A stretch of 64,000 nucleotides of DNA. Origin: an uncultured bacterium. GTDB lineage: Bacteria; Babelota; Babeliae; Babelales; Babelaceae. Made by a program: the position numbers. Within the stretch, counting starts at the first letter, position 1. The number at the start of each line of letters is the position of its first letter. Location: assembly GCA_963713855.1 (NCBI GenBank), contig OY970209.1:928001-992000 (forward strand). Reading direction: 5' to 3'. This document shows positions 30,001-33,000 of this stretch, piece by piece.

Positions 30001-33000
30001 TGGTTATCGGTATACTAATGGATAATAACCACACAATAATAAAGCTTTTTAGATAAAAGGCAGTTTGTAGGTACTTAGTTATGAAAAACAAAACACATTT
30101 TAAATCGATGCGAAGTGGGCCTCGTCATTTCTTTTTTTTGATTAGTGCGACTGTCTTAGGGTTAATTCTCTTGACTAACCTGATAGACCATTCCCGCTTG
30201 ACGCAGCCGATGCCCTATTCTGCTTTTTGGAAGAATGTTGAGCTTGGCCACGTAAAGTCAGTGCGTATAATAGGTCAAAAAATACATGGTGCGCTAAAAG
30301 ATAATAAAACTCAGTTTGAGACTGTAGCACCTGAAAACAACCCGCAGTTATGGGCTCTTCTTAAAGAGCACGGTGTTGAGGTAACATTCTCTGAGCCGCA
30401 CGCCTTGGCAGCCGGCTGGCATTGGGTTGCTCTTATGGGCTTATTGGTTATGGCAATCTTCGTATGGCTCCTTTTAAGGCAATCTCGAGGATCCGGTTCT
30501 TCTAGTAGTACTATCTTTAGTATGGGTAAAAGCCGGGCAAAGATGATTTCGCCTACACAGGTAAAAATTAATTTCTCTTGCGTTGCTGGTGCCGAGGAAG
30601 CAAAGCAAGCTCTTGGTGATGTTATCGATTTTTTAAAACATCCTGAAAAATTTAAGCGCTTGGGGGCTAGACTCCCTCGAGGCATTTTGCTTGTTGGTGA
30701 GCCTGGAAATGGAAAAACGCTTCTTGCAAAAGCTGTTGCAGGTGAAGCAAATTGTCCATTTTTTATTGTAAATGGGTCAGATTTTGTAGAGGTATTTGTG
30801 GGCGTTGGTGCTGCTCGCATACGGGACCTTTTTGCACAAGCTCGAAAGCAAGCGCCATGCATCGTCTTTATTGATGAATTTGATGCTATTAGCAGGCAAC
30901 GCGGCACTGGCCTTGGTGGAAATAATGATGAGCGCGAACAGACTCTTAACCAGCTTTTGACCGAGCTTGATGGTTTTGAAAGTCAAAATGTACCCGTTGT
31001 AGTAATTGCAGCAACTAATTTATCTGACGTTCTTGATAAAGCCGTTTTGCGGCCAGGAAGGTTTGATCAACGTATTGATATCCCATTTCCTGATACAAAG
31101 GCAAGAGAAGATATTTTGCGTATTCATGCGCGCGATAAGCGTATTTCTTCTGATATAGATTTTAAGAACATTGCTCTTGATACTGCTGGCTTTAGTGGGG
31201 CTGATCTTGCAAATCTTATTAACCAAGCGGCCCTTATAGGCTCGAAAAAGGGACATGATGTCGTTACGTTAACTGACATACAAGAAGCGAGAATTCGCCT
31301 TTTTAAGTCGCAAGAAACGCACGCTAATGTGGGAGCAAGTCAGAAGGGAGCTGCTAATGCGCGCCTTTTTATGCCCTCTCAGATTAAAACAACGTTTAAA
31401 GACGTTGCTGGTATAAAAGAGGCAAAGGAAGAGGTTGAAGATATAATACATTTTCTTGCGTCAGCCAGAGAAATTTAAACGCTTGGGTGCACGAATACCT
31501 CGTGGTGTTCTTCTGGTTGGAGACCCGGGAAATGGAAAAACGCTTCTTGCAAAAGCTATAGCTGGTGAAGCTCAATGTCCGTTTTTTAGTGTGAGTGGTT
31601 CCGACTTTATTGAAATGTTTGTCGGCGTCGGTGCTTCACGCGTGCGGGACCTTTTTACGCAGGTACGAAGGCACTCACCAAGTATTGTGTTTATTGATGA
31701 GATCGATTCTATTGGTGCTAGCAGAACGGGAAGTGGCCATGGTGGCGATCAGGAGCATAGTAGGACACTTAATCAGCTTCTAGCTGAGATGGATGGTTTT
31801 AATACGACGGGCAACGATACCATTGTTATTGGTGCAACAAACAGAGCAGATATTCTTGATAGTGCTTTATTAAGGCCGGGAAGGTTTGACCGTCAGGTTA
31901 CGGTACCTTATCCAGATTTGGCATCTCGCGAAGAGATCTTGCAAGTGCATGCTCGTGGCGTGATTATTGACGAAGGTGTCAACTTGAGGACTATAGCACG
32001 TGGTACTCCGGGCTTTTCTGGTGCTGATTTAGCTAACCTTATCAATGAAGCGGCGCTTTTTGCATCAAAGCAGGGGCATGAACGTGTGTTGCCGAAGGAC
32101 TTTGACGAGGCGCGAGATAAAATTATTATGGGTAAGGAGATGCGATCAATTGGCTTATCTCCAAAAGAGCTTAAAATAACAGCCTTTCATGAGGCAGGGC
32201 ACGCTTTAGTGCGGCTTTTAATGCCCGACGTAACCGATCCGCTTTATAAAGTGACAATTATACCTCGAGGCGCCTCTTTAGGATCGACTCATTATTTGCC
32301 TGAGCGCGAGAAATACACTTCAACTAAAGAAGAAATGCTTGCCTCGATAATGTCCGCGTTAGGTGGTCGTATTGCAGAGGAAATAGTATTTAATACGCTC
32401 TCTACCGGTGCATCAAGCGATTTTAAGGTTGCTACGGATATCGCTCGTAAAATGGTTTGCAGCTACGGCATGACTGATAATCTCGGTGTTATGTTATATG
32501 AGGCGCCATCGTATAGTAACCGCCAGAGCTATTCTCAAGAGACTGCGCATAAGATTGATGAGGAAATTCGTTCAATTCTTAAGGCATGTTATGATAAAGC
32601 AAAGGAGCTTCTTTTGGCCCATCGAGAAAAACTGGACAAGACTAGCCCAGCTTCTTCTGGAAAAAGAGACTTTGCATGCTGACGAAATTTATGCTTCGCT
32701 TGAGATTGTAAGAACAGAAAAAGTCTCTTAGAGCCTGAATTGCTTGTTTTTGTTATTTATGCTATAGTGTAAAGATATGTTTATAGTCCAATTGCTTACC
32801 TTCAACTGTATTTAGAACAAAGGGTATATTGATATGTCACGCATCTGCTGTGTCTGTGGCAAAGGGCCTCAGGTAGGTAATATTGTGAGCCACGCCAATA
32901 ATAAAACGAAAAGATGGGTTTACCCCAATGTCCATCGTATGCGCTTTACGCTGTCTGAGCACGATAGCCGAGTAAAGAGTGGCAATGTGTGCTCTAAGTG

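Follow-up and report, generated by a model that had tools for sequence, protein, structure and literature searches.

FtsH is, to our knowledge, the universal membrane-bound AAA+ protease; it has been described as a weak unfoldase, and M41 protease chains assemble as six-fold rings. The effect of an added motor ring is studied at present mainly in ClpA/ClpB/p97-type machines. Canonical FtsH and its relatives AFG3L2 and YME1 (MEROPS M41, TIGR01241) carry two transmembrane (TM) helices with an FtsH_ext domain, a classic-clade AAA module whose pore loop is of the FVGVG type, and an M41 domain marked by HExxH and Asp, and FtsH is a housekeeping single-copy gene; the locus described below shares all of these traits. 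A short linker connects the two tandem AAA modules of the type II classic-clade proteins p97/VCP/Cdc48 and NVL. In the double-ring AAA+ proteases ClpAP and ClpCP (PMC7568338, PMC11570520), two ATPase tiers serve one proteolytic chamber, a likeness in function to an FtsH with two modules. Clp systems are soluble, however, and divide unfoldase and peptidase between separate proteins, which belong to other AAA+ clades. Ycf2/Orf2971 of green algae is reported to be FtsH-derived, with two AAA+ ATPase domains in some green algae; both domains of Orf2971 reportedly hydrolyze ATP, and the M41 domain has been lost in this lineage (PMC9421593). The protein is a plastid import and quality-control motor and neither a protease nor bacterial. 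Our literature search found no description of an FtsH with tandem AAA modules or of a three- or four-module FtsH, and the Dependentiae/TM6 papers that it retrieved make no mention of FtsH.

The window analyzed here is a 64,000 nt stretch of the genome of an uncultured bacterium of the family Babelaceae, order Babelales (contig OY970209.1, positions 928,001 to 992,000). Its translated reading frames support a single ftsH gene with two complete AAA modules, hereafter D1 and D2, before one M41 domain and with the catalytic residues intact. The gene reads as follows.

30081-32731, + strand: whole ftsH gene; two TM helices with FtsH_ext, D1, repeated pre-AAA linker, D2, M41
30081..31457, + strand: piece 1, frame A; N-terminus, TM1, FtsH_ext, TM2, D1, lid, inter-module linker and first ~30 residues of D2
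30129..30185, + strand: TM helix 1, residues 17-35; hydrophobic stretch in the translation, helix 14-40 in the orthologue model
30132..30395, + strand: FtsH_ext (periplasmic) domain, residues 18-105; Pfam PF06480, E 2.9e-07
30417..30476, + strand: TM helix 2, residues 113-132; hydrophobic stretch, helix 110-136 in the orthologue model
30525..30590, + strand: copy 1 of the pre-AAA linker, start of the duplicated unit, after TM2
30684..31286, + strand: AAA module D1; PF00004 at residues 202-335 and AAA_lid_3 at 358-402
30696-30719, + strand: D1 Walker A motif, GEPGNGKT
30792-30812, + strand: D1 pore-loop motif, VFVGVGA
30864-30887, + strand: D1 motif VFIDEFDA
31050-31067, + strand: D1 motif RPGRFD
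31287..31412, + strand: D1-D2 linker, in which the pre-AAA segment recurs at 31359-31412
31459..32640, + strand: piece 2, frame A+1; remainder of D2, then Peptidase_M41
31507-31911, + strand: D2 AAA, from Pfam and translation
31519-31542, + strand: D2 Walker A motif, GDPGNGKT
31615-31635, + strand: D2 pore-loop motif, MFVGVGA
31687-31710, + strand: D2 motif VFIDEIDS
31873-31890, + strand: D2 motif RPGRFD
31978-32109, + strand: D2 lid, from Pfam and translation
32155-32640, + strand: Peptidase_M41, from Pfam and translation
32188-32202, + strand: protease motif HEAGH
32413-32424, + strand: SSDF with the Asp downstream of HEAGH
32642..32731, + strand: piece 3, frame A+2; conserved FtsH C-terminal end (32642-32728) and stop codon TAG (32729-32731)

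In Pfam, the ORF at 31456..32682 (408 aa) matches AAA, AAA_lid_3 and Peptidase_M41, and the preceding ORF at 30081..31478 (465 aa) matches FtsH_ext, AAA and AAA_lid_3. Together they hold two PF00004 and two AAA_lid_3 matches, as against the one AAA module per protomer of the canonical enzyme. The survey's finding had joined these two gene calls, g00876 and g00877, into one FtsH with two AAA modules and M41, the only FtsH of the genome. The Pfam matches, the motif positions and colinearity with the same-genus genome G166 bear this out, and M41 was found once in the 1.52-Mb one-contig genome. The membrane anchor consists of two TM helices around FtsH_ext, the helices being called from hydrophobic stretches and the orthologue model. 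Walker A, pore loop 1, Walker B, sensor 1 and both Arg fingers are present in D1, which is 59% identical to D2 over 236 aa. HEAGH and the downstream Asp provide the M41 zinc site, where we take the Asp of SSDF to be the third ligand from the spacing in solved FtsH. The pre-AAA segment is also repeated before D2 in the consensus of 83 two-module proteins, and the D1-D2 linker of the orthologue model forms a long helix (397-424) and then a low-confidence stretch (416-425).

The intact orthologue in G166, P0001 (882 aa), allowed comparison with curated families and solved structures. On TIGR01241 (FtsH; curated cut-off 600 bits), piece 2 scored 606.1 bits, piece 1, a partial protein, 506.2 bits, and P0001 1158.8 bits over two stretches. 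On TIGR01243, the CDC48/p97 family, P0001 reached 457.9 bits, below the cut-off of 802.65. In Foldseek, its D2 and M41 superposed on 3kds, 7tdo and 6nyy with a TM score of ~0.8, and p97-type chains aligned over both modules in 545-590 columns. The solved M41 chains that matched (7vhp, 7tdo, 3kds, 2ce7, 2dhr, 6nyy and 6az0) have one AAA module each and at most 644 residues. The protein thus differs from canonical FtsH in the doubling of the AAA module together with its pre-AAA linker, with catalytic residues intact in both copies. Unlike p97, it lacks an N domain, sits in the membrane by its own anchor and has a protease fused to it, and its D1 and D2 are mutual closest relatives within FtsH. 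Databases give genes of this kind the bare label 'FtsH' or 'AAA family ATPase'; copies broken by indels, such as the present one, are called as two genes.

The reading frame of ftsH is interrupted in this genome by two +1 breaks.

31451..31458, + strand: break 1; one extra base, either G 31458 or a T of the T4 run, giving a +1 shift
32641, + strand: break 2; one extra base, giving a further +1 shift

The M41 frame is homologous up to 32640 and the C-terminal end resumes in the next frame from 32642, so that the survey's finding, which counted one 1-nt break and ended the gene at 32682, has to be revised to two breaks and an end at 32731. Pieces 1, 2 and 3 are colinear with residues 1-~459, 459-851 and 851-873 of P0001, respectively, at 67-74% identity (70% for piece 3) and with no further lesion. 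If the frameshifts were real, ftsH would be a recent pseudogene, from which at best a shortened TM-D1 protein, but no protease anchored in the membrane, could be made. The density of the breaks speaks for such a decay, as the background of 0.038 breaks/kb in other genes predicts 0.10 in 2.65 kb and two were observed (Poisson P ~0.005, assuming evenly spread breaks), and break 2 lies outside any homopolymer. However, besides the colinearity with P0001, every catalytic residue is kept, and the gene is the only M41 gene of a genome in an order where 198 of 201 genomes proved to have an FtsH. Moreover, comparison with 400 kb of G166 showed five of 92 orthologous long ORFs to be frame-split in the present genome; among the split genes, that for topoisomerase I has two breaks and that for methionyl-tRNA synthetase one, and we take both to be essential. 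Because these two genes are broken likewise in the same assembly, assembly indels are indicated. We therefore regard a pseudogene as unlikely, if not negligibly so, and both 1-nt insertions as probably assembly or sequencing errors, an explanation that the survey had also favored and that these data support but do not prove.

We give hardly any credence to expression of the gene as written, whether through a programmed +1 frameshift at each site or through non-covalent assembly of separate TM-D1 and D2-M41 subunits. The P-site UUU at break 1 could re-pair as UUC upon a +1 slip, but this site is followed by neither a stop nor an obviously slow codon. A TTG at 31456 could start the second ORF as a separate subunit, but a protein started there would begin within the conserved N-terminal helix of D2, a module of which piece 1 encodes the first ~30 residues. 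Both sites are in frame in G166 and 36 other genomes, and a programmed frameshift was rejected on this lack of conservation and on the non-slippery sequence of break 2.

To place the gene in its order, we turn to the relatives. Of the 200 other Babelales genomes searched, at least 37 carry intact two-module forms of 882-981 aa. The survey had correctly reported uninterrupted orthologues in relatives, of which the 882-aa G166 protein is one, but the form reaches further than its figure of 8 of 30: the 37 come from the 149 genomes with listed best matches among the 200 others searched. Each of the 37 open frames contains two Walker A motifs, two Walker B motifs and one HExxH, and in 18 of these genomes the two-module FtsH is the only M41 match. 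The form is patchy, being found in 7 of 21 families. ClpP was not found in this genome nor in 192 of the 201 Babelales genomes, the other nine having matches of which only two are strong. The idea that loss of ClpP drove the rise of the double form was rejected, since ClpP is missing order-wide and so does not separate single-type from double-type genomes.

Single and double forms are flanked by the same neighbors, indicating one shared locus. The neighbors in the window are as follows.

28686..29969, + strand: conserved upstream neighbor, 427 aa, without a Pfam match
32834-33034, + strand: putative ribosomal protein L28, downstream of ftsH
33049-33336, + strand: putative ribosomal protein S20, downstream of ftsH

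The 427-aa gene adjoins ftsH at many loci, single- and double-type alike. The names L28 and S20 are our presumption, read from the translations by eye; the retrieved flank includes an L28 homologue at 34 of the 37 loci of the double type and at 46 of the 62 of the single type.

A module tree was inferred under LG+C20 with single-module outgroups, three rows of which are very long-branched and one of these falls inside D2. The D1 modules form one clade with support of 96 (IQ-TREE, 27/27) or 98-99 (FastTree), and the D2 modules form another with support of 80. Singles of families f11, f16, f18, f3 and f6 branch off ahead of the D1/D2 split, and the crown singles are sister to D1 and not outside D1 + D2 (support 79); by partition trees, these may be either D1/D2 recombinants or plainly ancestral-like. 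A first FastTree rooted on multi-module proteins, in which D2 was a basal grade, is superseded by this tree. The single D1 clade (96) and the common locus of single and double forms indicate one old internal duplication. It would have been a tandem duplication of ~275 aa, from the pre-AAA linker to the lid end, that produced D1 and D2 in each protomer, and it probably occurred once, at the ftsH locus, in the ancestor of the 'crown' Babelales families, with the two-module form retained as the only FtsH in many lineages. Two points speak against this history: the position of the crown singles as sister to D1, and the patchy spread over the families, which needs several secondary events, whether a return to one module or replacement of the allele. 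Two other histories were rejected: many independent duplications within Babelales, by the support of 96-99 for the D1 clade, and sorting by loss of ancient single-type and double-type paralogues, because both types sit between the same neighbors; in addition, nine of the 61 genomes compared bear the double form, and none of these nine also has a close single-type copy (>55% identity).

Larger relatives exist in other phyla. Among the 120 best matches, 18 proteins from other phyla have three Walker A motifs and 19 have four, and these resemble the Babelales form in combining TM helices, n AAA modules and one M41 domain. One of them, P0022, is labelled Acidimicrobiales, and cluster P0084 includes a member labelled Muribaculaceae. 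One module is without the DExD Walker B pattern in 17 of these 19 four-module proteins. The three- and four-module forms stem from independent duplications, as their modules group together and not with Babelales D1.

The ATPase residues are kept in both modules of the Babelales form. None of 39 D1 and none of 39 D2 modules deviates in the Walker A K/T, the Walker B D/E, the sensor-1 N, the two Arg fingers or the V and G of the pore loop, and H702, E703, H706 and D779 are invariant in the 83 two-module proteins. The protein has two tandem AAA modules on one polypeptide with catalytic and pore-loop residues in both, as in type II AAA+ proteins, a class assignment made from sequence. In D1, the aromatic residue of pore loop 1 is mostly F (37 modules, against two with Y); in D2, it is mostly Y (33 modules, against six with F). 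We measured module divergence by sliding identities. The loop after Walker B is less similar to singles in D2 (0.55) than in D1 (0.81), while the lid end is less similar in D1 (0.26) than in D2 (0.48). At a threshold of 80%, one column only was diagnostic. Judged from these alignments, the divergence of D1 and D2 is complementary.

Since all ATPase and pore-loop residues are kept in both modules, a two-tier hexamer would be the most likely working form. One M41 domain is present per protomer and the known M41 ring needs six protomers, which implies twelve AAA modules; the D1 ring would then lie at the membrane, followed by the D2 ring and, lowest, by the M41 chamber, and a substrate would have to pass both motor tiers one after the other. 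The modules might instead be coplanar, three protomers building one six-module ring with D1 and D2 alternating and with three M41 domains. Such a ring would resemble hetero-hexameric AAA rings, two- and three-module forms exist and both numbers divide six, and the ~40-residue D1-D2 linker could span to the adjacent position. Nor is the arrangement fixed by the AlphaFold monomer of the orthologue, which has good domains (pLDDT 82.5) but leaves the position of D1 relative to D2 free (pTM 0.53), or by Foldseek, where p97/Cdc48-type chains align across both modules only at ~10 A rmsd, a fit that speaks neither for nor against stacking. However, four does not divide six, and four-module forms exist too, as 19 of the 120 best matches; in addition, every solved M41 protease matched is built of chains with one AAA module. 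The D1 lid end, which in canonical FtsH leads into the protease, is the most diverged segment, as expected if D1 no longer rests on the protease ring. We consider the coplanar ring quite improbable and infer a stacked double ring. The probability is roughly two in three, in our estimate, that the joint reading holds: a sole housekeeping two-module FtsH, derived from one ancestral duplication and working as a stacked-ring hexamer, with both breaks being assembly errors. The gene product would accordingly serve as the single housekeeping FtsH of the organism, a membrane-anchored ATP-dependent zinc protease.

The two-motor design of FtsH is conserved and, it appears, has not been described before. 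A broader proposal, which we offer tentatively as somewhat short of an even bet, is that bacteria repeatedly built 'tower' FtsH proteases with two, three or four stacked AAA rings on one M41 chamber. The two-tier form of Babelales would have arisen by one ancient in-locus duplication and become the sole FtsH in many ClpP-less intracellular lineages, and its tiers would then have specialized: D1 retaining the membrane-side and pore-2 features while losing the protease-docking lid, and D2 retaining the docking lid while its pore loops changed from F to Y and pore loop 2 was remodelled. The extra tier would add grip and processivity. An FtsH with two intact modules and its three- and four-module relatives form a natural series in which the effect of an added motor ring on grip, unfolding power and substrate choice may be followed, and neighboring genera with one- and two-module versions at one locus would provide matched pairs for biochemistry.

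The ftsH gene of the window occupies two overlapping open reading frames on the same strand:

30081..31478, + strand, ftsH ORF 1, 465 aa; Pfam FtsH_ext, AAA (1.1e-42) and AAA_lid_3
31456..32682, + strand, ftsH ORF 2, 408 aa; Pfam AAA (4e-44), AAA_lid_3 and Peptidase_M41 (3e-55)

The survey's finding of two AAA modules, here D1 and D2, ahead of one M41 domain is borne out by these matches and by a separate motif set in each module. The protease domain contains HEAGH.

Motifs of the two AAA modules in the window ftsH
Walker A: D1 GEPGNGKT; D2 GDPGNGKT
Walker B: D1 VFIDEFDA; D2 VFIDEIDS
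Pore loop: D1 VFVGVGA; D2 MFVGVGA
Sensor 1: D1 ATN; D2 ATN
Arg fingers: D1 RPGRFD; D2 RPGRFD

D1 and D2 are 59% identical over 236 aa. The pre-AAA segment between TM2 and D1 (30525-30590) recurs ahead of D2 (31359-31412), so that the duplicated unit extends from the pre-AAA linker to the lid end, ~275 aa.

The window gene is colinear in three pieces with P0001, an intact 882-aa two-module orthologue from G166, a genome of the same genus. The first frame corresponds to residues 1-~459 of P0001 (67.5% identity), the next to residues 459-851 (73.6%) and the third to residues 851-873 (69.6%), and the gene has no further lesion. Break 1 is a single extra base at 31451-31458, in the T4 run or the G after it, and break 2 is a single extra base at position 32641. 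The survey had reported a single 1-nt shift and a gene end at 32682; the shift in the linker/D2 start region holds as break 1, but the second break was missed, and the conserved frame runs on to its true end, the TAG at 32729-32731.

The breaks were checked indirectly by a comparison of ORFs of ≥250 aa between 400 kb of G166 and the complete source genome, G000. Five of the 92 G166 ORFs with a G000 orthologue are frame-split in G000; the reverse comparison found splits in G166 for 3 of 135 G000 ORFs. One of the five genes split in G000 is ftsH; the others encode a WD40-like protein, an unknown protein, methionyl-tRNA synthetase and DNA topoisomerase I, the last with two breaks. Measured against G166, the topoisomerase I gene occupies three frames and the methionyl-tRNA synthetase gene two; they lie outside the window, at G000:C1:118409-120642 and 120659-122547. 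The splitting of essential genes in the same assembly, topoisomerase I and methionyl-tRNA synthetase, points to assembly indels. The break count in ftsH speaks against assembly error: the rate outside ftsH, 0.038 per kb, predicts 0.10 breaks in ftsH, and the two observed in 2.65 kb exceed this background (Poisson P ~0.005, assuming that errors are evenly spread). The two breaks in topoisomerase I show that breaks can cluster. We regard the ftsH breaks as assembly errors with a probability of about 0.7 and consider true inactivation unlikely.

As the survey had stated, this is the only FtsH of the genome: G000 (1,521,901 bp, single contig) has one Peptidase_M41 match, and D1 and D2 are its only FtsH-like AAA matches at E ≤1e-5. 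ClpP was not found in G000; Lon_C matches there twice, in full-length open frames of 811 and 796 aa, and one ClpB-type match lies in an open frame of 856 aa. ClpP is in general missing from Babelales; PF00574 matched in 9 of 201 genomes, strongly in only 2, and gave no match in the other 192. FtsH paralogues have multiplied in one lineage, family f5, genus g72, in which G082, G093 and G142 each have 7-8 Peptidase_M41 matches.

The D2-M41 piece matched in 198 of 201 Babelales genomes. Among the 150 matches listed, 882-981-aa open frames are present in at least 37 other Babelales genomes, and all 37 encode two Walker A motifs spaced by 269-279 residues, two Walker B motifs and one HExxH. By family, the double-type genomes among those sampled number 14/32 in f1, 2/4 in f2, 4/8 in f4, 8/10 in f10, 5/5 in f15, 2/2 in f17 and 2/31 in f19, again among the listed matches. 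The double form is the sole M41 match in 18 of the 37. In a collection of 5.8 billion proteins, two-module proteins account for 83 of the best 120 matches; the named ones among them are FtsH of Babeliales or Babeliaceae. A distant two-module frame of 889 aa (39% identity) occurs in G082 as well. An FtsH-type AAA module matched twice, with 38-53% identity, in four open frames of other Babelales genomes, which at 570-648 aa are no longer than one-module FtsH (G011:C20:2259-3743; G004:C12:16129-19412; G018:C1:31583-33028; G068:C7:4980-6335); these may be soluble tandem-AAA derivatives.

Beyond Babelales, the same 120 best matches include 18 proteins with three and 19 with four modules (within P0002-P0113; 1113-1493 aa), as counted by Walker A motifs, with one HExxH each. 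One of them, P0022, is labelled Acidimicrobiales, one member of the P0084 cluster is labelled Muribaculaceae, and the four-module cluster of P0021 has 1047 members. Of the 19 four-module proteins, 17 have one module that lacks the DExD Walker B pattern. The modules of these three- and four-module proteins cluster among themselves, indicating separate duplications. When 50%-identity clusters were searched by their representatives, the best 150 included 18 proteins with two modules, 4 with three and 1 with four, and a single HExxH in each.

The Walker A K/T, Walker B D/E, sensor-1 N, both Arg fingers and pore-loop V/G are invariant in 39 D1, 39 D2 and 62 single modules, and both motors look active as judged from these residues. 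The pore-1 aromatic residue is F in 62/62 singles and 37/39 D1, and Y in 33/39 D2. The loop after Walker B, which we take to be pore loop 2, has an identity to singles of 0.81 in D1 and 0.55 in D2, and the last lid segment one of 0.26 in D1 and 0.48 in D2. The sequence divergence of D1 and D2 is thus complementary. Partition trees agree with this. For the C-terminal part, D1 stands apart as a clade with a long stem (99) and D2 is intermixed with singles; for the N-terminal part, D2 is a single clade and D1 is intermixed with singles.

An LG+C20 tree of 109 module rows covered 27 of the 39 doubles and 43 of the 62 singles, together with 12 single-module outgroups. Babelales modules form one clade (support 99), in which singles of families f11, f16, f18, f3 and f6 branch earliest (93), followed by the D2 clade (80), which includes one misplaced outgroup row on a long branch, and then by the D1 clade (96, 27/27), next to which all other singles form a clade (79). 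Singles and doubles are flanked alike, by a conserved 427-aa protein upstream and two small ORFs downstream, presumably ribosomal proteins L28 and S20; an L28 homologue lies within the fetched flanks of 34/37 double and 46/62 single loci. The upstream neighbor in the window is:

28686-29969, + strand, 427-aa ORF without a Pfam match at 1e-5, kept beside ftsH in many Babelales families

G050 has a second two-module copy outside the L28/S20 neighborhood (L070, G050:C1:207065-212752; 764-aa open frame), the D1 of which is long-branched. We conclude that a single duplication occurred at the ftsH locus after the basal families had split off, and that the patchy distribution arose from later events, either collapse to one module or allele replacement.

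An AlphaFold2 monomer of P0001, predicted from an alignment of 83 two-module sequences, had a pLDDT of 82.5 and a pTM of 0.53. In Foldseek, this model aligned with FtsH/AFG3L2 over ~435-465 columns (TM ~0.8), and with p97/Cdc48/NVL over 545-590 columns, but at an rmsd of ~10 Å. The solved M41 chains matched do not exceed 644 residues, and none has two modules. The stacked two-ring hexamer is therefore an inference from stoichiometry and the existence of four-module forms. Among the papers listed by full-text searches for FtsH with tandem AAA modules, all double-ring AAA+ machines were of other kinds. Closest to it in the literature is Ycf2/Orf2971, a plastid protein that derives from FtsH and has two AAA+ domains but lacks M41 (PMC9421593). 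FtsH is a very well-known enzyme, and its two-module form is a real and conserved variant that appears to be undescribed; the copy in the window is interrupted twice, most likely through assembly errors.
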